From a virus (Duplodnaviria > Heunggongvirae > Uroviricota > Caudoviricetes): a DNA stretch of 10,081 nt. Within the stretch, counting starts at the first letter, position 1. Each line of letters begins with the position of its first letter. Of this stretch, positions 1 through 10,081 are shown one piece after another. The stretch is from IMG/VR virus record IMGVR_UViG_2663763286_000006, positions 1-10,081 of that record; one strand, written 5' to 3'. The notes under the pieces were generated by a model. The model worked only from the letters and a program-made list of their open reading frames with translations, was not told where the DNA came from and did no database searches. Position numbers and translations under genes: made by a program.

Positions 1-2
1 TA

Positions 3-119
3 ACGTGGGTGGACTGGTATAACAATCGACGATTGCTGGAAAGGCTGGGCCATATTCCTCCGGCAGAAGCAGAAAAAGCTTATTATGCTTCCATCGGAAA
101 TAATGATCTGGCAGCCTGA
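3..119 (+). CDS. IS3-family transposase OrfB, C-terminal fragment (…TWVDWYNNRRLLERLGHIPPAEAEKAYYASIGNNDLAA*)
   Basis: Open frame from the window edge to TGA at 117-119. The C-terminal tail is typical of IS3-family DDE transposases and lies 42 bp upstream of the IS terminus. Confidence 0.75.
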   Translation, partial: TWVDWYNNRRLLERLGHIPPAEAEKAYYASIGNNDLAA

Positions 120-136
120 GTTCACAGATAAAATAC

Positions 137-161
137 TCTCCAGGAAACCCGGGGCGGTTCA
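137..161. repeat. IS right terminal inverted repeat (tctccaggaaacccggggcggttca; reverse complement TGAACCGCCCCGGGTTTCCTGGAGA)
   Basis: Matches the repeat at 9701-9725 (TGAACCGCCCCGGAAATCCTGGAGA) at 22 of 25 positions; begins with the TGA terminus typical of IS3-family ends. Confidence 0.8.
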
Positions 162-680
162 GGCTGGCATATTTCCTGTTGCCTTCATGGCCTCCAAAAT
201 AACCAGAACGCCATCTCGCCCAACCACCTCAGCGATAACCTCGGTGTTGTCGCCAACAACATCGCAGAATGCCTGAACTGCCTTACGAGCCAGCTCATTC
301 TCCACTGCCAGCGCCGTGCGATTACCCTCCAGCTCTGCAATGCGCTGTTTTGCGGCATCCAGTTCAATCGACAATTTTTCCAACTGCTCTTGATGCTTCT
401 TGTATTCCTGATATGCGTGCCAAGACTGACCTTTGCGCACACTATCAGTGATATCAGTAATCTGTTCTGGTGTTAGCGTGGTCAGTGGCTGTGATGGGAA
501 AATAAGCACTTTCCCGGAATCCCAATCAAAACCAGCGTGAATTGACTGAACCTCAACTGAAGGTGTTGAACCAATGCTGCCAGGCGAATGAACAACGATC
601 GTTACATTCATATCGCGACGATGGCTGTGGTTGTTGGACAAAATACGATTCACCAACTCAGAAAATTTGGAAAATTTCAT
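159..680 (-). CDS. Prophage hypothetical protein with C-terminal coiled-coil (173 aa as read); 3' end probably truncated by the IS insertion
   Basis: ORF MKFSKFSELVNRIL… with a heptad-like segment (QEQLEKLSIELDAAKQRIAELEGNRTALAVENELARK). Its stop codon TGA (159-161) is the terminal TGA of the IS itself. The start overlaps the upstream gene stop in an ATGA arrangement. Confidence 0.5.
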   Translation of the reverse strand: MKFSKFSELVNRILSNNHSHRRDMNVTIVVHSPGSIGSTPSVEVQSIHAGFDWDSGKVLIFPSQPLTTLTPEQITDITDSVRKGQSWHAYQEYKKHQEQLEKLSIELDAAKQRIAELEGNRTALAVENELARKAVQAFCDVVGDNTEVIAEVVGRDGVLVILEAMKATGNMPA

Positions 681-967
681 GCTGATTCCCCTTTCTCTGC
701 TCTCTCCTGTCGGAACATCACTATCATCAGGTCGCCTTTTGTCGCTATCCTGGCTGTTGTACCTGGTTCAATGCGGCTAAGCTCAAATGCGTCATAGAAC
801 GCTTCTAATGCCTTCTGGCGTAGTTCCTGTTTGCGCCGTTTTTTCCACTGTTTTAGGAAAATGGAACCCAGCCATCGCCATGTACGGGACATGATGTAAA
901 GCCAACCGAGAAGTGCCAGACCGGTATTTAGGAGCGTATCGATCGTTATTGTCGTGTCGATATTCAC
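677..967 (-). CDS. Small putative membrane protein (96 aa, GTG start)
   Basis: A GTG at 967 overlaps the upstream stop (GTGA) and is preceded by AAGGAAG at about 6 nt. Hydrophobic segment LLNTGLALLGWLYIM followed by a basic stretch KQWKKRRKQ. The annotated ATG at 1000 has no Shine-Dalgarno sequence and would overlap the upstream gene by 36 nt. Confidence 0.45.
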   Translation of the reverse strand: MNIDTTITIDTLLNTGLALLGWLYIMSRTWRWLGSIFLKQWKKRRKQELRQKALEAFYDAFELSRIEPGTTARIATKGDLMIVMFRQERAEKGESA

Positions 968-1830
968 TGGCTGCTTCCTTTGCGAATCTGTTCCGCCCAT
1001 TCTTCAAGGGATTTCTCCGCATATTCACCAGACAGGCCATCAATCGGATGCGCTTCATTAGCCAACTCTTCTTTCGCTGACAAAATCATGCGTGTAACGT
1101 CGAAAACTTCACGCAAAGACTTATTGATAAATCCGTGATTGAACGCAGCAGCAAGACGGCTGGCGGTATAGTTAATCCCCTCGTTGCGTGCTTCCGCACG
1201 TACTTCAGCAAGGAAAGCATCGGTGGCTGGGGTTTCGACATTAGGTCGAAGCTCATAATCACAAACTCTTTCAATCCATGGTGATACTCTGTCGCATTTC
1301 CTCTTCTTGCGTTCACCGACCTTGGTTGCCTGCTGAATAATTACCCCCCAGCAAATGCTTTCGACCTCTTCGCTCCATCCATCGCAAGCATCACCTCTAT
1401 AGTCGTCAATTGCAGCCTCAGCAGCAGCGATAGCCTCCTCAGCAGTTTTGTGACACTCGAAACTAAATTCAGAGCCATATGAGAAATACATAGCCCCGGC
1501 CTTAAGCCCCGCATTCTCCGCCACCAGCGCCGCGAGATTAGTCTCAAGCTCTGCAATTCGACACATAGCATCAATATTTGTGTCCTCCAGGCGCTTAATT
1601 TCACCAAGCAGCTCCAGTGCAACCTTTGGGTTGAACGCGGCAACATAACGAGCGTTGTTCTCTGCATTTTTCTGTCCATCAAAGCCGGTCCATTTGATAA
1701 CGTCTTCACATCGTTCATCACCGGGCGTGTGCACCGCATAAGTACCAGTATCTGTCGAAATAAATGCGACCCATTCGTCTGGTGTTGCCTTTTCTGCCGC
1801 CTCACGCAGTACCTGATAGTCAATTGTCAT
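964..1830 (-). CDS. Ead/Ea22-like prophage protein (288 aa)
   Basis: N-terminus MTIDYQVLREAAEKATPDEW… and a central coiled-coil (LELLGEIKRLEDTNIDAMCRIAELETNLAALVAENAGLKA) resemble Ea22-like proteins of lambdoid early-left regions (from memory). Start chosen at the ATG that overlaps the upstream stop (ATGA), with AAGGA 8 nt upstream. Confidence 0.55.
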   Translation of the reverse strand: MTIDYQVLREAAEKATPDEWVAFISTDTGTYAVHTPGDERCEDVIKWTGFDGQKNAENNARYVAAFNPKVALELLGEIKRLEDTNIDAMCRIAELETNLAALVAENAGLKAGAMYFSYGSEFSFECHKTAEEAIAAAEAAIDDYRGDACDGWSEEVESICWGVIIQQATKVGERKKRKCDRVSPWIERVCDYELRPNVETPATDAFLAEVRAEARNEGINYTASRLAAAFNHGFINKSLREVFDVTRMILSAKEELANEAHPIDGLSGEYAEKSLEEWAEQIRKGSSQ

Positions 1831-2471
1831 TCTCGCCATCCTTCACAGTTGTAATCACTACAGCCTTCAAAATCATATGGGCTGTACTGCCAGGTTATTT
1901 TTCCGCAATGCGGACAATTCCAACGCACCTTCCCGCTTCGCGACTTCTTTCTTCTGTTTTGCTTTTTCAACCAGTCAGGCATGACCAAACCTGCGCCCTG
2001 AACCATTGTTCTGCGGTTAAAGTTATTGATATTGAACGTCCGGCGCTTTGCTGCATCAGCAATGGAAAATGGCAACCAAACTATTCCTGGTTCGTTTTTG
2101 TTGGCGACGCTAAAGATGGTCGCTTTACTGAAGTCATCTGTTGGCAATCCACCGTGTTGAAGCCAGTAAACATCGTTGCCGTTCCAGCTACCTTTTTTGT
2201 AGGCCACATACGCAGTGCAATCTGACTCAATCAGGCTTTCTGTAGGGATGTACTGGCAATCAACGTGCCACACAGCCATTGCATCCACGCTATCAGCGCA
2301 AACAGGCTGATCGATATCTCGTCCACAATTCCAGGCTTTTTGGGCTGCTTCCAGCGTGTAAACATGAGCGCGATCGATATCAGAACTGTAACCATTGCCG
2401 TTATGGCAATGGAATGAGGCGTTATTACCCACAGTTTCACGCAAGCACATCATGTAAAAGCGGTTATTCAC
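1827..2471 (-). CDS. Hypothetical protein with C-terminal Cys-rich zinc-ribbon-like motif (…WNCPHCGKITWQYSPYDFEGCSDYNCEGW)
   Basis: 214-codon ORF with a GTG start at 2471 preceded by GGGAGG at 6 nt; the stop overlaps the next start (ATGA). Function not recognised. Confidence 0.5.
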   Translation of the reverse strand: MNNRFYMMCLRETVGNNASFHCHNGNGYSSDIDRAHVYTLEAAQKAWNCGRDIDQPVCADSVDAMAVWHVDCQYIPTESLIESDCTAYVAYKKGSWNGNDVYWLQHGGLPTDDFSKATIFSVANKNEPGIVWLPFSIADAAKRRTFNINNFNRRTMVQGAGLVMPDWLKKQNRRKKSRSGKVRWNCPHCGKITWQYSPYDFEGCSDYNCEGWRE

Positions 2472-2679
2472 TGGATGCCTCCCAGCAAATTTGTCTTATA
2501 TAAGAACTGTTAACGCGCTTTACTTTCCCGTCGAACTCCAGTTTCTTTAGACGACGCAAAACGTATGCCGTTTTGAGTGTGCGATATTTATCCCTAAGCC
2601 AGTTGGTCACGACGTAAGTCATACAGCGCCCGTGTTCTTCCAACACCCGAACTATTTCTTCGTCGGTTGGCTTGCTCAT
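2464..2679 (-). CDS. Small basic protein (71 aa), possible DNA-binding protein
   Basis: ATG at 2679 preceded by AAGGAG at 7 nt; overlaps the upstream stop (ATGA). Basic and helix-rich (RRLKKLEFDGKVKR). A winged-helix fold is only a guess. Confidence 0.5.
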   Translation of the reverse strand: MSKPTDEEIVRVLEEHGRCMTYVVTNWLRDKYRTLKTAYVLRRLKKLEFDGKVKRVNSSYIRQICWEASSE

Positions 2680-2897
2680 TTTGTCGCTCCTTCAGCTTTC
2701 TCTACTTTCGCTGCCATGATTTCCAGCTTTTGTGCTGCCGATGCCGCTAACCTGTGAAATTCTTCATCTGTTTCAACTGGAATTGGTACAAACCTGACAC
2801 CAATTTGAGCAAGGCTATGCGCCATTTCGAGACTTGCTCTTAACTCTGCTGGGGATGCTTTATTCAGGCCGACTTCCTCACAAATAACTGATTGCAT
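2676..2897 (-). CDS. Hypothetical small protein (73 aa)
   Basis: ORF MQSVICEEVGLNKASPAELRASLEMAHSLAQIGVRFVPIPV…; sits 10 nt downstream of the preceding stop and is co-directional with its neighbours. Confidence 0.45.
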   Translation of the reverse strand: MQSVICEEVGLNKASPAELRASLEMAHSLAQIGVRFVPIPVETDEEFHRLAASAAQKLEIMAAKVEKAEGATK

Positions 2898-2906
2898 ACG
2901 CTCGCC

Positions 2907-3632
2907 CTACTGAATACGCTCAAACTCGATTACCCAAACCCAGGGATTAGCACTCCAGCTTTCTTCGCCGTAGATGGATTCCCACAGGCGCTGGAACGCA
3001 ACCTTGGCCATTGCGAAATCCCCCTTGGGAGTAAGGAATGTTCCCGGGTGATCAGGAAGCAAACTTCCAGCAGGCGGAACGCCCTCATCCCTTGCATCGC
3101 ATTCGCTGATATCGTTCAACCGCTCAACGCGCACGTTGGTAATTTCCACCAGGATGCGTGATGCCCATCGCGGCATGTGAATTGATGGACGCCACCCACC
3201 ATCAAACTTTTCATTCACAGTGTGAGGTTTCCAGTCGGCATCATCGGGTATCGACCATAAACCGTAATCACCAGGCTTTTGCTCACAACTGGCCCGATAA
3301 ATCCTTGCTGCGTTCTTCTCATCGCCACGACAAAGGTTGTCGTTCCAGTCCACACTGCAACCATCTTCATTGCCTAATATCGCCCATGTTTCACGAACCC
3401 AAATTCGATCGCCGACGATACCAAAGGGGCAATTGAAAACACTGCTTACACCATCAGCCCCGTACCACTGAAAACCTGCACCAATTTTTCTAACCATCAC
3501 CGGTGCTTCTGGACCAACTTCCGCAGGCTGATTTTTCATTATCCGCCGCGTCTGCGTTTTCCTTCCTTCGAGGATGGCCCGGACCATCTCATCGTTGAAA
3601 ATCATGCCGCGCTCTTTCACTTCGCCTTTCAT
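2907..3632 (-). CDS. Hypothetical phage protein, possibly ASCH/PUA-like fold (GRKTQTRR motif)
   Basis: Long ORF with an N-terminal …MIFNDEMVRAILEGRKTQTRRI… segment resembling the GxKxxExR-type ASCH signature (weak, from memory). Start placed at the third in-frame ATG (3632), which has AGGGGGA immediately upstream and lies 10 nt after the stop of the small peptide ORF. ATGs at 3668, 3650 and 3605 are alternatives. Confidence 0.5.
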   Translation of the reverse strand: MKGEVKERGMIFNDEMVRAILEGRKTQTRRIMKNQPAEVGPEAPVMVRKIGAGFQWYGADGVSSVFNCPFGIVGDRIWVRETWAILGNEDGCSVDWNDNLCRGDEKNAARIYRASCEQKPGDYGLWSIPDDADWKPHTVNEKFDGGWRPSIHMPRWASRILVEITNVRVERLNDISECDARDEGVPPAGSLLPDHPGTFLTPKGDFAMAKVAFQRLWESIYGEESWSANPWVWVIEFERIQ

Positions 3633-3642
3633 GCATCCCCCT

Positions 3643-3729
3643 TTACCCATGCGCGACGATGCCGCCAAAAGTGATAGAGAACAGCCAGAAATAGATCGCG
3701 GCCATAATGATTTTGAATGCCGTGTTCAT
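3643..3729 (-). CDS. Unannotated small hydrophobic peptide, 28 aa (MNTAFKIIMAAIYFWLFSITFGGIVAHG)
   Basis: Not in the supplied ORF track (too short). ATG at 3729 preceded by AGGAG with an 8-nt spacer. The peptide has a single predicted transmembrane-like core, and its stop lies 10 nt upstream of the next gene start. Confidence 0.35.
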   Translation of the reverse strand: MNTAFKIIMAAIYFWLFSITFGGIVAHG

Positions 3730-3757
3730 ATTTTCAGCTCCTGTGATTGATTGGATA

Positions 3758-3788
3758 CATGCCGCGCCTTGCGGCATGTTTTTATTTT
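3758..3788 (+). terminator. Intrinsic terminator-like hairpin oriented for the + strand (CATGCCGC-gcctt-GCGGCATG followed by TTTTTATTTT)
   Basis: 8-bp GC-rich stem, 5-nt loop and a T-rich tract on the + strand only. It is convergent with the minus-strand operon and lies immediately upstream of the small peptide gene's RBS. Confidence 0.5.
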
Positions 3789-3815
3789 CACTTCCCCTGT
3801 CTTAAAAATCAATAT

Positions 3816-3828
3816 TTATTAGAGCAAT
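3816..3828 (-). repeat. 13-mer junction motif ATTGCTCTAATAA (minus-strand orientation), copy A
   Basis: Exact copy; it overlaps the tandem stop codons (TAA TAA) of the HAD phosphatase gene. Confidence 0.6.
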
Positions 3829-4334
3829 TGTTGTTGATAAAGAAGCGCATTTTCATACTCCCTGACCATTAATGTAAGTACGCCATGACTCCTGAACACA
3901 CGCGCCACTTCAATCTTATCTTCCAGCGCGAACGCAATTTTACTTAGACCAATTTTCTTCAGGAGATCAATCTTTGCTGGACCGTCATTTCTGTCATCGG
4001 TGGCAGGACGCATAGATAGCAAAGGCTCAGCCCCGTTTGTTACGTACTTCCGCAGCCAGGCTCGTGTTTTATCCCTTGCGATCTCACAGCGCCCGGTTAC
4101 AAACCAGACCGTGTAAACGTTAAATAACTGGCGCACCATATCAATAACTGGAGTGATGGGAGCATCAGTGTCACAGGCAAGGTTAAACTCGTTCCAGTGC
4201 TCTGTTAATGCACCTTTGCCAGGTGGTGGAAGTAAATGCAGCCTGTCTTCCGTTGCCTCTGATATCGTCCCATCAATATCTACTATGACGATGTACGGAC
4301 GTTCCTGGTGTGCGTGTTTATTGAAAATACTCAA
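3819..4334 (-). CDS. HAD-superfamily phosphatase (polynucleotide-kinase 3'-phosphatase-like domain)
   Basis: HAD motif I IVIVDIDGT (DxDGT) near the N-terminus, motif II-like VWFVTGR, and a downstream acidic motif ATDDRND. TTG start at 4334 preceded by AGGAGG. Confidence 0.6.
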   Translation of the reverse strand: MSIFNKHAHQERPYIVIVDIDGTISEATEDRLHLLPPPGKGALTEHWNEFNLACDTDAPITPVIDMVRQLFNVYTVWFVTGRCEIARDKTRAWLRKYVTNGAEPLLSMRPATDDRNDGPAKIDLLKKIGLSKIAFALEDKIEVARVFRSHGVLTLMVREYENALLYQQQLL

Positions 4335-4352
4335 ATGCCCTCCTCATTGGAC

Positions 4353-4386
4353 GAAAAAAATGCTGGTGGGCGCACTCCACCAGCAT
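4353..4386 (-). terminator. Rho-independent terminator (minus strand): 10-bp stem ATGCTGGTGG/CCACCAGCAT, 7-nt loop, then U7
   Basis: Perfect 10-bp inverted repeat at 4360-4386 followed on the minus strand by TTTTTTT (4353-4359); located between the stop of the 420-aa gene (4407) and the HAD gene start (4334). Confidence 0.65.
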
Positions 4387-4406
4387 TAAAAGTGACACTG
4401 TAACTA

Positions 4407-5669
4407 TCAGCGAACGTAAATAGTGCCGCCGTTCTCTTTTTCCCATGCATCGCTACGTGCATAGCAAACATCGAGAAGTCTTCTTGCCGCAGTTTCCTCT
4501 AAACCCAATTCGACAACCAACTGCTCATGACGGCGGGTAACCACATCAAACAGGGTATGCAGCCCTTTAGTTGCCAGATCATCAATGAATTCCGGTTCGA
4601 ACGGCAGCTCTGCCTCTGCCAACATAACCTCTTGCGCCCACTCAACTCGACGGACCAGTTCCGGGCGGCGGCTTTCCATCTCTTTACAGATCAATTCATG
4701 GAAGAACTCTACCCAACCTTCCGGCTGGAACTCGCGGAAAATGGCCAACGGCTGGAAGTTTGGCATCAACCATTCGTTGATCCGGATATCAATGGCATAG
4801 CCCATGTCGCAGCAGAACTGATAAGCAAAGTCCAGCTTAGAAACGATATAAGGACGCTCGTTATTGAACTCTTTAGGCGATGAGATCCCATAAGCCAGGA
4901 GGCGCGGGAAGAAGGAGATTTGCCCTAACGTCGGATGAAGTTTTCTTGCAGGGAAACGGCGCTCAGTAATGCCATACATTTCCTTCTTGAGCGTCGCAAA
5001 TTTGGCATTCTCATTAACCAGCGCGGTAACCTCTGCTTTTTTATTAGCAAATGCCACGCGCGCTTCGCTTGCATCTTTAATAGTTTTTTTGAGCTGTTGG
5101 TTAAGGTCGGCGACCTGCTTACGCAGTTCCTGTCGCTCGCTTTTAGCTTTGTTATAGCGTTTCTCAAGGTTAAAAGGATCAAGTTTCATGATCTCTTTAT
5201 ATTGAGATTTTAGCGTTGAAATCTGTGAGTTCCGCAGTTCAACCATCGCGGTCATTTCATTGAGTTTTGTTTCCAGCTCAATGCTTATACGTTCGGCATT
5301 ATCAGCACGCTGGTTGGCGTCATGCGTCGCATCGTCGATCGCGTCCTGTTGCTGGCGTTTCAAATGTTCAATTTGCAGCTGAAGCTCTTCAATTTCTTTA
5401 CCCTTCAGACCGAGATCCAACTGCATATTTTCAGCTGCATCTACCAGGGAGTTATGGCTATCAGCTTCTGCGTTATAAACATCAATAAGCTGTGCGTGAA
5501 GCATCTCCGCTGACTGAACCGCATTATCAAAAAAACGCGCTGTGAGGTCATCACAACTAACGCGGCGTTGCGCGGCCCGGATGTTCTGGATAATGGCCGG
5601 GATACCGGCATTCAGGACGTCAGGGATAGATACATTTTCGATTGATTGGTTTTGTGCTGAAGTGCTCAT
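4407..5669 (-). CDS. Large hypothetical protein (420 aa): N-terminal coiled-coil (about residues 60-230), C-terminal globular domain of unknown function
   Basis: Long ORF with strong heptad periodicity and K/E/Q richness (…LQLQIEHLKRQQQDAIDD…ELRKQVADLNQQLKK…), then a Trp/Phe/Cys-containing C-terminal domain. Its start lies 1 nt after the upstream stop (TGAAATG). Confidence 0.6.
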   Translation of the reverse strand: MSTSAQNQSIENVSIPDVLNAGIPAIIQNIRAAQRRVSCDDLTARFFDNAVQSAEMLHAQLIDVYNAEADSHNSLVDAAENMQLDLGLKGKEIEELQLQIEHLKRQQQDAIDDATHDANQRADNAERISIELETKLNEMTAMVELRNSQISTLKSQYKEIMKLDPFNLEKRYNKAKSERQELRKQVADLNQQLKKTIKDASEARVAFANKKAEVTALVNENAKFATLKKEMYGITERRFPARKLHPTLGQISFFPRLLAYGISSPKEFNNERPYIVSKLDFAYQFCCDMGYAIDIRINEWLMPNFQPLAIFREFQPEGWVEFFHELICKEMESRRPELVRRVEWAQEVMLAEAELPFEPEFIDDLATKGLHTLFDVVTRRHEQLVVELGLEETAARRLLDVCYARSDAWEKENGGTIYVR

Positions 5670-5670
5670 T

Positions 5671-5889
5671 TCAAAGTTCCGTATTAGCTTGTGCTTCGGT
5701 CATTTTTCCTAAGTATGAAGGAGGAAGGACTACGCAATTTGTATCCAGTCCCTCACCTATGGCAGCCTGTAAAATTCTGGCTAAGGTGAGTCTCTTGTTG
5801 CGATACCTGGTGATGACATGCCTGATACCGCCGGTCGGCGTAACAAAGGCGATCAGCCAGTAGTGATATTTCCGTCGGAATGGCCACAT
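5671..5889 (-). CDS. Hypothetical small protein (72 aa)
   Basis: ATG at 5889 preceded by AAGGTG at 4 nt; the stop directly abuts the start of the 420-aa gene (coupled pair). Confidence 0.45.
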   Translation of the reverse strand: MWPFRRKYHYWLIAFVTPTGGIRHVITRYRNKRLTLARILQAAIGEGLDTNCVVLPPSYLGKMTEAQANTEL

Positions 5890-5903
5890 AGTGCACCTTG
5901 TAG

Positions 5904-5916
5904 ATTGCTCTAATAA
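5904..5916 (+). repeat. 13-mer junction motif ATTGCTCTAATAA (+ orientation), copy B
   Basis: Exact copy; forms a perfect 13-bp inverted repeat with copy C, enclosing the terminator hairpin. Confidence 0.6.
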
Positions 5917-5940
5917 AAAACGTGATGAGTGTACATCACG
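5915..5940 (-). terminator. Rho-independent terminator (minus strand): stem CGTGATG/CATCACG, 6-nt loop, then U6
   Basis: 7-bp inverted repeat at 5921-5940 followed on the minus strand by TTTTTT (5915-5920); lies between the GT-A-like gene stop (5971) and the 72-aa gene start (5889). Confidence 0.55.
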
Positions 5941-5956
5941 CTTTAAAAATATGGAA

Positions 5957-5969
5957 TTATTAGAGCAAT
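5957..5969 (-). repeat. 13-mer junction motif ATTGCTCTAATAA (minus-strand orientation), copy C
   Basis: Exact copy starting 1 nt after the stop codon of the 5971..6672 gene. Confidence 0.6.
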
Positions 5970-5970
5970 A

Positions 5971-6672
5971 TTATTCTGATTCTCGCTCAAAAAATGAGCT
6001 GACAAGGGGAAGCCAATCCTCTGACACTTCGCGAGGTCGCGGTTTGCCGTGGAAAAAGATTATTCGGCAGTCTTTTGGTAATGCCCCATTCCCCCTGGAG
6101 TAACGCGCGCTCGCATATTTTGAACCAGGTTCCACAACATCGGCCTTGTAACTTACAAACCATCCTGGATACAGATCCTGAAATGCTGGTGTATCATCGC
6201 CCATAACCTTCCGTAAGAACCCCTGATCACCCCAGCACTCAGTAGTGACACAACGAGAAATCCAACCTTCCGGATCTTGCCAGAATGAACTCCAGATATG
6301 CGCTTTAACACTATTTGGTATCCACAGGGCACCGCTGCCACGATATTGTGGATGGTAAAAATCCCTAAGCATGGTGAAGCTGGTTGGTGGATGCTCTAGG
6401 ATTGGGCGTATATCACCGGCAATAACCGTGTCCAAATCCAGATAGAACAGATCATCGGTTATATCCGGTCGGAACAACTCGATTTTCGCCCACCAGCCAC
6501 GGCACTTTTGCCACTGGTTGATCAATGGGACAACTTTGACGCCAGGTACATGTAAACGCTTCAGGTCTGTCAGGCAAATAATTTCATAGCCTTTTGGCAG
6601 TTGATTAACCAGCCACTGCACATCGGAAGCGTTATAGTCACCACCAGAGCGAAAAACTAAAGCAATCTTCAT
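5971..6672 (-). CDS. Hypothetical protein, possibly GT-A-fold nucleotide-sugar transferase-like (DxD-like LDLD motif)
   Basis: 233-aa ORF whose start overlaps the phosphatase stop (ATGA). It contains …[27 protein letters not shown]…, reminiscent of the sugar-binding/DxD region of GT-A glycosyltransferases. This is a weak, memory-based resemblance. Confidence 0.45.
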
Positions 6673-7346
6673 GCTGCACCATCACCTTTCACTTTCATCA
6701 ATGTCAGGTTTCCGCAAAATACGGCACCAGTGTCGATATACTGCTGATTCCAGAATGTCTTCGGGCTTTTCACCGGAGTGTGACCAAAGATAAAACGATC
6801 TGCGCCCGAAATTTCGCCACCAATATCATCCATCGAATCACTGATACGCTCGCGCGCCCAGACAACGTTGAAAAGCGGCACCTCCTTACCGAATTGGTAT
6901 TCATTATCCGGATAGTCGGCATGGGCTATAACGATAGTTTCTTGCCCGGTGTTCAACTCAATGATATAGGGCAGACGCTTTACCAGCTCCACCAGCGCCC
7001 AGGCTAATATTTCCTGATCAGTGTCCAGCATGAAGAACCATTGTCCGCCATTCATTAGCCAGTTATTCACGTTGCCATCTGGACTTAACGCATCAATCAT
7101 CAGCCGCTCATGGTTCCCCATCACTGCCCTGAACCAGGGCATCTGCAATAGTTCCAGACATTCGACATTTTCAGTACCGCGATCGATAAGGTCGCCGACC
7201 GATATCAGTAAATCCTGCGCCGGGTCAAAATCCACACGATGGAGTTCGGACATCAGTCTGGTGTAGCAACCATGCAGATCACCAACAACCCAGACATTCC
7301 TGTATTTGGTACCGTCGATACGGTGATAAATTGTGGGTGCCATCAT
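6669..7346 (-). CDS. Serine/threonine protein phosphatase, calcineurin-like metallophosphatase (phage lambda PPase / PrpA-PrpB-like)
   Basis: Canonical signature GDLHG … GDLIDRG … GNHE (DXH-GDXXDRG-GNHE). Length and N-terminus ([28 protein letters not shown]) align with lambda PPase as I recall it. Start chosen at the ATG overlapping the upstream stop (ATGA) rather than the ORF-track ATG at 7361. Confidence 0.85.
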
Positions 7347-7957
7347 GTATTCTTCAGCCATTCTTTAAGAGTCATCTGCGGAATACCTCCCATTTTCCCG
7401 CATGAAACAACGTCAATCCGTTCACGCGCAGACTGGAATAACAAAGGCAGGTGACTTAGATTTTTTGGCGTGCCGCCGGAGTGAACGCGTGGTTCTTGTG
7501 TAGCGTCAACGCCCACCAGGGCGACATGTTTGAATCCGATATGGAAAGCCAGGTTCAGAGCGCCATATGCACTATTGCCGCTGGCAATTTCATTCTCATC
7601 TTCGCAAAGTCCGAAATGTGCGGACCAGCGCCACGCCCACCACTCGGGAGAATGCTCCATGCCACGTTCAGCCACACGACGGAAGCACAGAACGCCGTCT
7701 CTGACTTCACGTTCTTTAACATCGGGTAGTGCCATGCAATAACAAACACCACGGCGACGGCGGCCACGACCAACGCGCCGCATATTGTCTGGCGATGGAT
7801 CAAGTGTGAAAAAATAAGAAGCGCGGTTCAGCCAGTCGATGGCCCCATTGACCGCTATAATCGGCACTCCGCGCGGCGCAACAAAGTTTGCGGCGCTTGG
7901 GCCACTGCCGACGATAATAACGCGATCACTGCCTCTAAATTTATTCTTGGGAAACAT
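7343..7957 (-). CDS. Hypothetical protein with N-terminal GSGPS nucleotide-binding-like motif (Cst-II/GT42-like or MptE/DUF115-like fold?), paralog 1
   Basis: Contains [10 protein letters not shown]…IIAVNG and later [16 protein letters not shown], which resemble the IIAGNGPSL and GYKEIYLSGID motifs of Campylobacter Cst-II-type sialyltransferases and DUF115 proteins (from memory). Clearly paralogous to the next gene upstream. Confidence 0.55.
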
Positions 7958-8484
7958 TGAATTGCACTGCTCCTACTTGCATTCAAAATATGTAAATCTG
8001 CGTGTTTTTTGCGGGTATCCAGGAACTGCTGTTGCCATTTTGAAATAGAAACCTGCGTTGGATTCCGTAGGGCTTGAGGGTGCGCGCCATGCCAATGAAG
8101 GCCGTTTTGCAGAGAACAGTCATAGCCGACTAATACCACTACTTCAGCCCCTGATTCAGCAGCCAGACTGATAGCCTGCGCGCCGCTATTTACCCCTTCC
8201 GCCGGTCCACAATATCGCCTGTACTCCAACGAAAATGATTTCGCCGCCGCCAGGTTGGCTGTCACTTTGCGGAATCTCCCTCCCGGTATGGTGGATCCGT
8301 ATTGCTTCCACCATGACAAATCACCGGCGTATAAGGCATAAATGTCATCGAACATCTGCCAGGAATTGTTAACCGCGATGATTGAACAGCCAGTTTTTTC
8401 TATAGCAGCACAGTCCTCACGAGTGAGTGACGGACCGCTACCGACACAAAAAACAGTCCTAGTCGCCCTGCGTGGTATGTTCAT
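7855..8484 (-). CDS. Hypothetical protein with GSGPS motif, paralog 2 (start placed at internal ATG by homology with paralog 1)
   Basis: Contains TVFCVGSGPS…IIAVNN and VVVLVGYDCS, matching paralog 1 motif for motif. Its C-terminal 34 codons overlap the start of paralog 1 by 103 nt. The ORF-track start at 8517 is an alternative. Confidence 0.5.
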   Translation of the reverse strand: MNIPRRATRTVFCVGSGPSLTREDCAAIEKTGCSIIAVNNSWQMFDDIYALYAGDLSWWKQYGSTIPGGRFRKVTANLAAAKSFSLEYRRYCGPAEGVNSGAQAISLAAESGAEVVVLVGYDCSLQNGLHWHGAHPQALRNPTQVSISKWQQQFLDTRKKHADLHILNASRSSAIQCFPRINLEAVIALLSSAVAQAPQTLLRRAECRL

Positions 8485-8680
8485 TCTCAGCTGCAAATTC
8501 AGCCTCCAGGCGAGCATTCATTTCAGCGATTACAGGGTCCACTACAGCATCTGTTTCCTGTTCATTACGCGGCATGATCGATGCCAGCGATTCATAATTA
8601 GCCTTGGATGACACGATTATTCTCCCGATGTTAATGTGCGCTATATCAAATGGCTCATATGTACTAATTAATTTATTATT

Positions 8681-9259
8681 TTAAGCAACATACAACCACT
8701 TGTCGCCGTTCAATACATGCTCAATAGCCTCACCCTTTTTAAGGCTTATGTATTCCAGGATGGCGGTTATCGCTTGTTCTGCACCATACGCAAGAACGAC
8801 GTAGTAACCTTCCTCTCTAAGCCTGCGCATCCAGGCGATCTGCTCTTTCGTCGGGGCTTTACCATTTGGTTCTTTAAGCTCAATTCGCATGCCGTGATAA
8901 ATACCGCATGCTTTATCGAGACTCATGTCCGGATAACCTTTTTTCTGCCCTTCAGCCTTCATTTTCCCGGCGGTTGCTTTTGAACGTTTCCATCCGTTAG
9001 GCGTTGCATGCAACAGCTCATAGATGTCAGGGTGCTTGCGTTCGAAGTAATCAAAAATGAAAACCTGCTCGAAGTGCTCGCAATTTCCGTCGCGCAGGTC
9101 TGGGTTCTTTGCCAGTGCTGCAAGTGCCTTCGCATGTGGAGAAACTTCTTTTACCGGCGCAAGCGATAAGAATGGATCCTTTTTGGTTTTTGGCCTGGAC
9201 CGCCCCTTATTTCGACGCTCACTAAAAGCCTGAAACTCTTCCTCAGTAAAGCGCAACAT
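8681..9259 (-). CDS. VRR-NUC domain (PD-(D/E)xK-type) nuclease-like protein
   Basis: C-terminal half has GYPDM … IELKEPNGKAPTKEQIAWMRRLREEGYYVVLAYG, matching the VRR-NUC pattern (PD … ExK … Q … G-hydrophobic). ATG start at 9259 lies 2 nt after the upstream stop. Confidence 0.6.
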   Translation of the reverse strand: MLRFTEEEFQAFSERRNKGRSRPKTKKDPFLSLAPVKEVSPHAKALAALAKNPDLRDGNCEHFEQVFIFDYFERKHPDIYELLHATPNGWKRSKATAGKMKAEGQKKGYPDMSLDKACGIYHGMRIELKEPNGKAPTKEQIAWMRRLREEGYYVVLAYGAEQAITAILEYISLKKGEAIEHVLNGDKWLYVA

Positions 9260-9261
9260 AA

Positions 9262-9507
9262 TCAGTCAAATCCTGCCGGTCGCATGCCATATTTACGCTG
9301 TTTTGCGGCCTGCTCTTCCCTGTGCCATTGCGCACATTCAGCGTCACAATTAATGCCTGATTCAATCGATTCATTGCAGTAACGACACTTCCCTGTAAAT
9401 ACCTGGCTCACGACCTGTGCCTGCTTTCTGATGTTATCGATGGCCATGTCTTTGAGAGCTTCTAACTGATTCATGCTCAGCTCTGCATCATCAACACGTT
9501 CTGCCAA
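9262..9507 (-). CDS. TraR/DksA-family C4 zinc-finger protein (lambda Orf73-like), TTG start
   Basis: CxxC…(17)…CxxxC arrangement (CRYCNESIESGINCDAEC) in a roughly 80-aa protein with an N-terminal helical segment. TTG at 9507 is preceded by GAGGAAA at 5 nt; an internal ATG 11 codons in is an alternative start. Confidence 0.5.
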   Translation of the reverse strand: MAERVDDAELSMNQLEALKDMAIDNIRKQAQVVSQVFTGKCRYCNESIESGINCDAECAQWHREEQAAKQRKYGMRPAGFD

Positions 9508-9564
9508 TTTTGTTTCCTCGTGAAGAACCTACTTAAGGGCAGAATGATACATTTCACATTCAAA

Positions 9565-9577
9565 ATTGCACTAATAA
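9565..9577 (+). repeat. Variant copy of the 13-mer motif (ATTGCACTAATAA, 1 mismatch), + orientation
   Basis: 12 of 13 identity to the motif at 5904-5916, located in the AT-rich region upstream of the first gene of the minus-strand gene array. Confidence 0.4.
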
Positions 9578-9700
9578 TTTTCTTTTATTGAGTTAAATAT
9601 TCAACAAATGACTAGCGGTAGAATCACCATCATCTATTTCTGGCAGGCTGACTATGGCTACATCAATCACTACAACCCAAAGCACCCGGCAATATCCTCT

Positions 9701-9725
9701 TGAACCGCCCCGGAAATCCTGGAGA
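9701..9725. repeat. IS left terminal inverted repeat (TGAACCGCCCCGGAAATCCTGGAGA)
   Basis: Inverted match to 137-161. Confidence 0.8.
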
Positions 9726-9754
9726 CTAAACTCCCTGAGAAAGAGGTAAACAGG

Positions 9755-10081
9755 ATGACTAAAAATACTCGTTTTTCCCCCGAGGTCCGTCAACGGGCAG
9801 TTCGTATGGTTCTGGAAAGTCAGGGCGAATATGACTCACAATGGGCGGCAATTTGTTCCATTGCCCCAAAGATTGGCTGTACACCAGAGACTCTGCGTGT
9901 GTGGGTTCGTCAGCATGAGCGGGATACCGGGAGTGGTGATGGTGGACTCACCACCGCTGAACGTCAGCGTCTGAAAGAGCTGGAACGTGAAAATCGTGAA
10001 CTGCGCCGCAGTAACGATATCCTTCGCCAGGCTTCCGCTTATTTTGCGAAGGCGGAGTTCGACCGCCTCTGGAAAAAATGA
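9755..10081 (+). CDS. IS3-family transposase OrfA (108 aa; helix-turn-helix and leucine-zipper region)
   Basis: [57 protein letters not shown]… followed by a leucine-zipper-like [30 protein letters not shown]. Ends in an A-rich stretch (GGAAAAAATGA) where the programmed -1 frameshift into orfB is expected in this family. Confidence 0.85.

Follow-up and report, generated by a model that had tools for sequence, protein, structure and literature searches.

The window analysed here is the whole 10,081-nucleotide stretch of IMG/VR virus record IMGVR_UViG_2663763286_000006 (positions 1 to 10,081), a segment of a P1/P7-type phage-plasmid on its reverse strand, and our subject is a two-gene cassette within it that encodes proteins of 72 and 420 amino acids (aa). 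The cassette is the pmgR-pmgS operon of such an element, a locus that is ordinary and already annotated. We consider it probable that the pair forms a core, C1-controlled operon of the lytic cycle in which PmgS serves as an early accessory of phage DNA recombination and PmgR as its lineage-specific partner or neighbour. A sequence-only reading had proposed an independently acquired moron with a candidate exclusion, defence or anti-defence function, and this proposal turned out to be largely wrong. The locus is textbook P1 and represents no new kind of system; the new elements are the domain assignment of PmgS, the link of its family to RecET recombination and the hypothesis of an epistatic relationship between pmgR and pmgS.

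Identity of the cassette

The open reading frame (ORF) map of the window places the 72-aa gene, pmgR (shtA in P7), at 5671-5889 and the 420-aa gene, pmgS (shtB in P7), at 4407-5669, both on the reverse strand. pmgR is preceded by the Shine-Dalgarno sequence AAGGTG and belongs to PHROG 3177, and pmgS matches PHROG 1660 over its full length (E 3.4e-195). The close juxtaposition of a small gene and a coiled-coil gene (TGAAATG), noticed earlier, is confirmed by this map: a single base separates the pmgR stop codon (5673-5671) from the pmgS ATG (5669-5667), and the junction reads ...CTT TGA A ATG AGC...

A megablast search with positions 4300-6000 (1701 bp) returned 19 phage records, all of them aligned over the full query at 98.9-99.5% DNA identity, with the punaviruses P1, P7, RCS47, SJ46 and JL22 among them. 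PmgR is 100% identical to its P1 and P7 counterparts (73 of 73 codons, stop included), and PmgS has 417 of its 420 residues in common with the P1 protein and likewise with that of P7 (418 of 421 codons, stop included). The pair is annotated as pmgR-pmgS in P1 (AF234172 / NC_005856) and as shtA-shtB in P7 (AF503408). The gene order of the window is pmgL, pmgM, pmgN, pmgO, pmgP, ppp, pmgQ, pmgR, pmgS and pap, followed by a P7-like variable region. The window thus shares with P1 and P7 the genes, their order, the neighbours of the pair (pmgQ upstream, pap downstream), the operators, the promoter and the hairpin, and every feature of the Punavirus pmgR-pmgS operon that was tested (DNA, pmgQ and pap flanks, two C1 operators) was found. 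It differs from P1 in the DNA downstream of pap, which is P7-like, and from both phages in an apparent insertion sequence (IS) that interrupts gene 26 at its other end.

Repressor control of the operon

The junction motif that the sequence-only reading had noticed just upstream of the pair is real and was identified as the C1 operator ATTGCTCTAATAA, whose 17-mer consensus was found four times in the window against 0.03 occurrences expected. OpmgRa (formerly Op86a; ATTGCTCTAATAATTCC; 5953-5969, reverse strand) is identical in P1 and P7 and overlaps the -35 element of the pmgR promoter, and OpmgRb (formerly Op86b; 5904-5920, forward strand) lies in the pmgR leader. The two copies are inverted relative to each other and bracket the promoter and the upstream hairpin; the P1 and P7 records describe them as 'monovalent C1-controlled operators' and note that they control pmgR and pmgS. 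The promoter itself, PpmgR (5940-5968, reverse strand; -35 TTGCTC at 5963-5968, -10 TAAAGC at 5940-5945), is a predicted sigma-70 promoter placed by alignment to the P1 record AF234172, where it is likewise a prediction, and a consensus promoter scan did not list it. With two C1 operators on this promoter, the operon should be silent in the lysogen, as predicted from the sequence. Upstream of pmgR no late (Lpa-type) promoter is annotated, and no -22 box like that of LPpmgL or LPhot is visible.

Further matches to the C1 operator, at 3812-3828 (reverse strand) and 9565-9581 (forward strand), correspond to P1 OpmgT (Op88) and O26 (Op82), respectively. With up to three mismatches allowed, the search did not recover Oppp/Op83, a site annotated near pmgN.

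Terminator-like hairpins had been reported on both sides of the pair, and folding bears them out. The upstream one (5911-5944, reverse strand, hairpin plus U-run) follows the pmgQ stop codon and has an 11-bp stem and a 6-nt loop; at about 5917-5944 it reads AAAGCGUGAUG-UACACU-CAUCACGUUU, then UUU. Its folding energy is -15.0 kcal/mol (z -5.6; none of 200 shuffles as good). It sits between the two operators, overlaps the -10 element of PpmgR and the expected transcription start, and is absent from the list of a simple terminator scan, the likely reason being that an upstream A-run pairs with part of the U-run. The hairpin is kept in P1 and P7 apart from an A>G change at window position 5941, the sole difference from these phages in the 96-bp control region, which converts the -10 element from TAAAAC to TAAAGC and, at the base of the hairpin, A-U pairing to G-U. 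The downstream intrinsic-terminator-like hairpin with its run of seven T residues (4352-4387, reverse strand) begins 20 nt past the pmgS stop codon, before pap. Its stem (4359-4387) comprises 11 bp, six of them G-C, followed by TTTTTTT; it was the top match of the terminator scan and folds with -18.1 kcal/mol (z -3.0; one of 200 shuffles as good).

This layout suggests how the two signals at the upstream end might coexist. The upstream hairpin would end read-through from the upstream pmgN-pmgQ genes, and transcripts from PpmgR would start about 7 nt after the -10 element, in the hairpin loop, so that they would lack the 5' arm and escape termination.

Comparison with diverged P1-like relatives separates the conserved parts of this arrangement from the local ones. 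Upstream of the pmgR homologue in locus L004, whose PmgS is 53% identical, there is a C1-type operator with an inverted partial copy. In locus L003 (PmgS 27% identical), the same position has a 15-mer of another sequence, AAGATACTAATTTAT, in two perfect copies inverted relative to each other (9704-9718, forward, and 9736-9750, reverse, of that locus); the repressor there may be heteroimmune, its operator having evolved along with it. Paired inverted operators in both loci make repressor control a conserved property. Intrinsic terminators were not found at the equivalent positions in L003 and L004. The 'insulation' by terminators thus appears to be a feature of the P1/P7 group, and the sequences indicate that an own promoter with paired operators is conserved more widely.

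These findings bear directly on the proposal of an acquired moron, according to which the coiled-coil protein and its small partner would be an exclusion, abortive-infection or anti-defence module. A moron should have its own promoter and terminator, be expressed from the repressed prophage, and show patchy presence and atypical composition. The pair does have its own promoter and hairpins on both sides, but these hairpins are not conserved in L003 and L004. Operators on the -35 element and in the leader predict silence in the lysogen, which is the opposite of moron behaviour, and this control is kept in diverged lineages. The pair is core in P1-like elements, is present in all 19 phage records matched and also in distant elements, and shows no GC anomaly (0.45-0.49, against 0.45-0.52 for the window). 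The idea of independent acquisition therefore fails on identity, regulation, conservation and composition alike.

Domain architecture of PmgS

As the sequence-only reading had stated, no family could be assigned from sequence alone: Pfam is blank for both proteins, and NCBIfam gave only coiled-coil noise. PmgR has no match in either database, and its profile found nothing among Protein Data Bank (PDB) sequences at E ≤ 10.

PmgS was modelled with AlphaFold2 from a 63-sequence alignment (mean predicted local distance difference test score, pLDDT, 89); this model superseded an earlier one from 10 sequences, in which the middle domain had a pLDDT of 69. It consists of an N-terminal helix (residues 15-36), two long helices (41-160, 120 residues, and 168-234), a middle domain and a C-terminal domain. 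The long helices form an antiparallel coiled coil of about 190 residues (residues 41-234; 4968-5549, reverse strand), in agreement with the coiled coil recognised earlier and with the P1 record, which notes a myosin-like coiled coil in PmgS. The chain folds back at an L-D-P turn (residues 163-165) whose proline is shared by 57 of the 63 relatives. SMC, Rad50 and LmuB proteins likewise have a long coiled coil that is antiparallel and conserved at its apex. In contrast to these, PmgS has no ATPase head, Walker motifs, hinge or zinc hook, and Pfam detects no P-loop family in it. Kinship with SMC/Rad50 was rejected, as the matches cover the coiled-coil segment only and reach 14-18 bits in NCBIfam against cut-offs of 300-1000; the likeness is compositional only.

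The middle domain (residues 238-350; 4620-4958, reverse strand) has an alpha/beta fold in the AlphaFold2 model, and Foldseek found no fold match to it in PDB or BFVD. Its conserved positions are mostly glycines, prolines, tryptophans and hydrophobic residues, together with R341, and they include no invariant acidic set, which makes a nuclease or other hydrolase unlikely. A PD-(D/E)XK nuclease was considered and rejected, there being no conserved catalytic residues.

The C-terminal domain (residues 359-413; 4431-4595, reverse strand) was assigned from the model and from profile matches as a five-helix domain of the (HhH)2 superfamily, with the two helix-hairpin-helix (HhH) motifs characteristic of this fold. 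The family profile matches the N-terminal domain of RAD51 (E 1e-7) and the C-terminal domain of the RNA polymerase alpha subunit (alpha-CTD; E 1e-6), and overall the C-terminus resembles the RAD51/RadA N-terminal domain, the alpha-CTD and NusA AR1/AR2 at E values of 1e-7 to 1e-5. Foldseek agrees with the profile, the C-terminal ~55 residues superposing on (HhH)2 domains at 1.4-1.8 Å. Among the 63 relatives, 18 match Pfam HHH_5 and 13 match RNA_pol_A_CTD. Most relatives carry the canonical h-K-G-I-G-x-x-x-A hairpin of (HhH)2 domains, whose G-h-G part serves to contact the DNA backbone (K in 43, the first G in 55 and the second G in 45 of 63), and the second hairpin of the window's PmgS (L388-G389-L390-E391) is degenerate relative to the family K-G-I-G. 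Unlike RAD51, RNA polymerase and NusA, PmgS has no recombinase ATPase core and no RNA polymerase or NusA body. (HhH)2 domains bind DNA or proteins.

The region beyond the coiled coil had been described as an unrecognised domain rich in aromatic and cysteine residues. The composition is as described (residues 240-420 contain four Cys and 12.7% F/W/Y, compared with 4.6% in the coiled coil), and the fold search recognised the (HhH)2 domain within this region and left the middle domain without a match. Taken as a whole, PmgS would present a globular head, made up of the N-terminal helix, a novel alpha/beta domain and (HhH)2, on an antiparallel coiled-coil stalk. It is probably an early DNA- or protein-binding accessory factor and not a head or sheath protein.

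Relatives of PmgS accompany phage recombination genes

Close relatives of PmgS are confined to P1-like elements. When 1.84 billion proteins were searched with a profile, a family of 121 representatives at 50% clustering was recovered, mostly of 360-470 aa; E was below 1e-10 for 85 of these, and each of the 63 relatives in the alignment matches PHROG 1660. In their source databases the PmgS-like proteins are named 'hypothetical', 'helix-hairpin-helix domain-containing' or 'RNA polymerase alpha C-terminal domain-containing', and we found no relevant literature on PmgS-like proteins or on RecT/RecE with HhH and a coiled coil.

Outside the P1 group, pmgS homologues are found in early regions. In the Aeromonas phage phiARM81mr, the order is ExoVIII, RecT, integrase, a 58-aa ORF, the PmgS-like gene, one further ORF and a Dam methyltransferase. 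A DNA methyltransferase gene lies directly downstream of the PmgS-like gene in the Vibrio phages douglas 12A4 and 1F273_PE002, the latter also having YfdP/YfdQ (DUF2303) upstream. Two metagenomic contigs add to this picture: in one (L006), RecT is directly upstream of the PmgS-like gene and an integrase is nearby, and in the other (L012), the PmgS-like gene is the first after a CI-like repressor gene, heading toward an integrase.

A larger sample was drawn from IMG/VR with a degenerate DNA pattern for the motif H-P-x-L-[VI]-x-R-x-E-W-A, which retrieved 63 loci, 62 of them with at least one ORF matching the family hidden Markov model (HMM). In the 56 loci covered by neighbour clustering, a RecE-like/YqaJ exonuclease (phrog_7655) occupies position -1 in 29 and a RecT annealase (phrog_2449) position -2 in 21; other loci have ExoVIII/DUF3799 or a DEDDh exonuclease. 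A 160-aa protein of no assigned function is at position +1 in 28 of the 56, and integrases are found at positions +3 to +5. After de-duplication of the PmgS-like proteins, a recombination nuclease or annealase was found within six genes in 11 of 13 clusters at 90% identity, 5 of 7 at 70% and 3 of 4 at 50%. A head or tail gene was never a neighbour of the PmgS-like gene in the loci examined outside the P1 group.

Phage recombination modules such as lambda exo-bet-gam, P22 erf-abc1-abc2 and Rac recE-recT-ralR include accessory genes, and in model phages the slot after the exonuclease and annealase genes holds anti-RecBCD and restriction-alleviation genes. PmgS-like genes share that slot, and the early-left operons that contain them are under repressor control and run as far as the integrase. 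The proteins themselves showed no likeness to Gam, Abc2 or Ral in sequence or fold, and at 360-470 aa they are much larger. As the family follows RecT and RecE-like genes in repressor-controlled early-left operons, we take PmgS to act either on phage DNA undergoing replication or recombination or on an attacking host enzyme. The family is moderately widespread in gammaproteobacterial phages and its position after RecT/RecE-like genes is strikingly regular; it may thus supply an accessory factor for recombination in phages or for protection from host nucleases, with possible relevance to recombineering.

One further neighbour recurs. phrog_874 is at position +2 in seven unrelated prophage loci (within five genes in nine). 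In the window, the 253-aa protein encoded at 2907-3668 (reverse strand), related to P7 Upf86.8 and P1 PmgT, also belongs to phrog_874; Pfam finds no match for it. The neighbourhood of PmgS and phrog_874 thus appears, from these gene orders, to be conserved beyond P1.

PmgR and the published genetics of the pair

PmgR homologues were found only on P1-like contigs of roughly 90-100 kb. In P1-like elements pmgR always directly precedes pmgS, and the pair is kept with a spacing of 4-9 nt at PmgS identities of 53%, 27% and 20%. The small ORF upstream of the PmgS-like gene in locus L007 is a PmgR homologue; the 58-aa ORF in the equivalent place in phiARM81mr was rejected as one, since it shows no similarity. 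PmgR would therefore be a small partner or neighbour of PmgS specific to the P1 lineage. Both genes are among the 21 'extremely conserved' genes across 77 P1-like phage-plasmids (PMC9603915).

Published genetics shows that PmgR is required for filled, tail-joined heads and that PmgS is dispensable for plaque formation and anti-restriction. An in-frame pmgR deletion yielded fewer than 10^2 plaque-forming units (PFU)/ml and, as in the pacA and pmgC mutants, gave tails together with incomplete heads; pmgR supplied in trans rescued it, and PmgR was undetected in virions by mass spectrometry (Gonzales et al. 2022, PMC9024508). The in-frame pmgS deletion plated normally and showed normal EcoA/EcoB/EcoK restriction, and pmgS is not mentioned in the main text of that paper, its virion table included. 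Only five essential P1 genes have been newly found, and pmgR is among them. A second study scored it as non-essential, with dCas12a roadblocks in pmgR giving efficiencies of plating (EOP) of 0.94 and 0.30, and listed it among five essential genes 'missed' by the screen; such roadblocks were shown there to have polar effects on genes further down the transcript (Piya et al. 2023, PMC10695390). Owing to this polarity, the pmgR roadblock should silence pmgS as well.

The conflict between deletion and roadblock fits a weak roadblock, or a need for very little PmgR, or a need for PmgR only when pmgS is expressed, and it bears on whether pmgR is truly structural. The last of these options, to which we assign a low probability, corresponds to an antagonist pair, in which unpartnered PmgS would trap replicating DNA or a packaging factor and block head filling, and PmgR would restrain or redirect it. 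Such a pair would account for the lethality of the pmgR deletion with pmgS intact and the harmlessness of both the pmgS deletion and the polar roadblock in pmgR. It would also agree with the stop and start codons one base apart, with the adjacency kept at 20-53% PmgS identity and with the failure to detect PmgR in virions. However, four more genes known to be essential (mat, repL, 25 and 26) escaped the same screen, and for two of these, 25 and 26, its authors suggest ineffective roadblocks (PMC10695390); little PmgR may suffice; and no PmgR is recognisable alongside the PmgS-like proteins found outside the P1 lineage. We regard this explanation as improbable on present evidence. A version of it that treats pmgRS as an early DNA-handling module instead of a morphogenesis operon, with PmgS as a diverged member of a hitherto overlooked family of coiled-coil (HhH)2 proteins that go with phage RecET-type genes, binding DNA ends, intermediates or a host nuclease, and PmgR acting as a lineage-specific regulator without which PmgS blocks concatemer formation or packaging, so that pmgR would be essential only in the presence of pmgS, has a similarly small chance of being correct.

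The databases regard both proteins as factors of virion morphogenesis: ShtA is annotated in P7 for 'sheath structure or assembly', ShtB for 'sheath contraction', and PHROG 1660 is named 'PmgS-like head morphogenesis'. In addition to these annotations in the P1, P7 and PHROG 1660 entries, the tails and incomplete heads of the pmgR deletion agree with such a role, as does the frequent occurrence of coiled coils in scaffolding and tape-measure proteins; among weak PHROG matches, two relatives hit tape measure and one scaffolding families. PmgS, however, is dispensable and does not figure in the published virion proteome; a late promoter is not annotated for the operon, whose sigma-70 promoter is under repressor control; the C-terminal (HhH)2 domain is a nucleic-acid or RNA polymerase-type module; and relatives that match PHROG 1660 lie in early-left recombination and integration regions, not in head or tail modules. 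The 'pmg' label itself is explicitly 'putative'. We thus consider this explanation very improbable. PmgS does match the PHROG 1660 HMM, and the head-morphogenesis role given in the name of that family, which we did not find borne out, is doubtful. The label 'PmgS-like head morphogenesis' nevertheless spreads via PHROG annotation; it rests on a 'putative' name of 2004 and is contradicted by genetics, domains and context. The unfilled heads seen on loss of pmgR, as in the pacA packaging mutant, fit a defect in the supply of packageable DNA, and participation of PmgR in this supply is compatible with the data at least as well as a structural role in head completion.

The genetics also bears on the proposed defence or exclusion function. 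PmgS is dispensable for growth, the pair is without an assigned known function, and PmgS relatives lie in accessory early regions with DNA methyltransferases, nucleases and recombinases, the usual site of anti-restriction and anti-RecBCD genes. Against this, a search of PADLOC-DB 2.0 gave for PmgS only sub-threshold matches to the LmuB coiled coil (17-18 bits) and none for PmgR, pmgR is essential for virion production, and the pmgS deletion mutant restricts normally. Combined with the regulation and conservation of the pair, this makes the moron explanation unlikely. PmgS on its own might have an anti-defence or anti-nuclease role, in that the protein is dispensable and its relatives are found beside recombinases, nucleases and DNA methyltransferases; the normal EcoA/EcoB/EcoK restriction of the deletion mutant (PMC9024508) counts against an anti-restriction role. 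The sequence-only reading had held that a confident match of the large protein to a structural or housekeeping phage family, for instance a recombination mediator, would speak against it. The gene context approaches such a match, and no direct family match was obtained.

Several observations weigh against our preferred reading of PmgS as an accessory of phage DNA recombination. The RecET context comes from relatives that are ~16-24% identical to P1 PmgS, P1 itself has no RecET module adjoining pmgS, and the IMG/VR sample is biased to one sub-clade, having been drawn with a single motif and forming four clusters at 50% identity. At five of the polar or glycine positions that are best conserved in the family, P1-type PmgS differs from the majority (H282A, R286C, H335R, K388L and G391E), so that the ancestral activity may have been lost or altered in it. 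(HhH)2 domains can make protein contacts as well, as in NusA AR2 and the RNA polymerase alpha-CTD, so that DNA binding by PmgS is not assured. A low-copy structural role is possible as well. The functions of the promoter and terminators are predictions, and the biochemical roles of PmgS and PmgR are ones that we infer.

Neighbouring genes

At the far end of the window, homology to P1 ends at about 9700, ~15 codons into gene 26, a baseplate gene known from amber mutants. Beyond this junction (region 9701-10081) lies an OrfA of an IS3-family transposase (9755-10081, forward strand), and in this P1-like element an IS seems to have inserted into that essential tail gene. The same gene 26/IS junction was found in no PLSDB plasmid.

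Four 'putative morphogenetic' genes upstream of the operon look more like genes for enzymes, judging from their matches. PmgM (8681-9259, reverse strand) has a VRR-NUC/Holliday-junction-resolvase-like match that is sub-threshold in Pfam, PmgO (7855-8517, reverse strand) and PmgP (7343-7957, reverse strand) have weak MptE-like and sialyltransferase-like matches, and PmgQ (5971-6672, reverse strand) belongs to a PHROG glycosyltransferase family. All four genes were non-essential in published knockouts.

Downstream of the operon, pap (3819-4334, reverse strand) encodes a HAD-type polynucleotide-kinase phosphatase domain and has a TTG start codon with a good GGAGG ribosome-binding site. It starts 25 nt past the strong pmgS terminator, and no promoter is annotated or predicted between the two genes (4335-4406). 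A further hairpin between pap and the next gene (3757-3779, forward strand; 10 bp, six G-C pairs, followed by a T-run) lies on the strand opposite to all genes and would terminate antisense or convergent transcription only.

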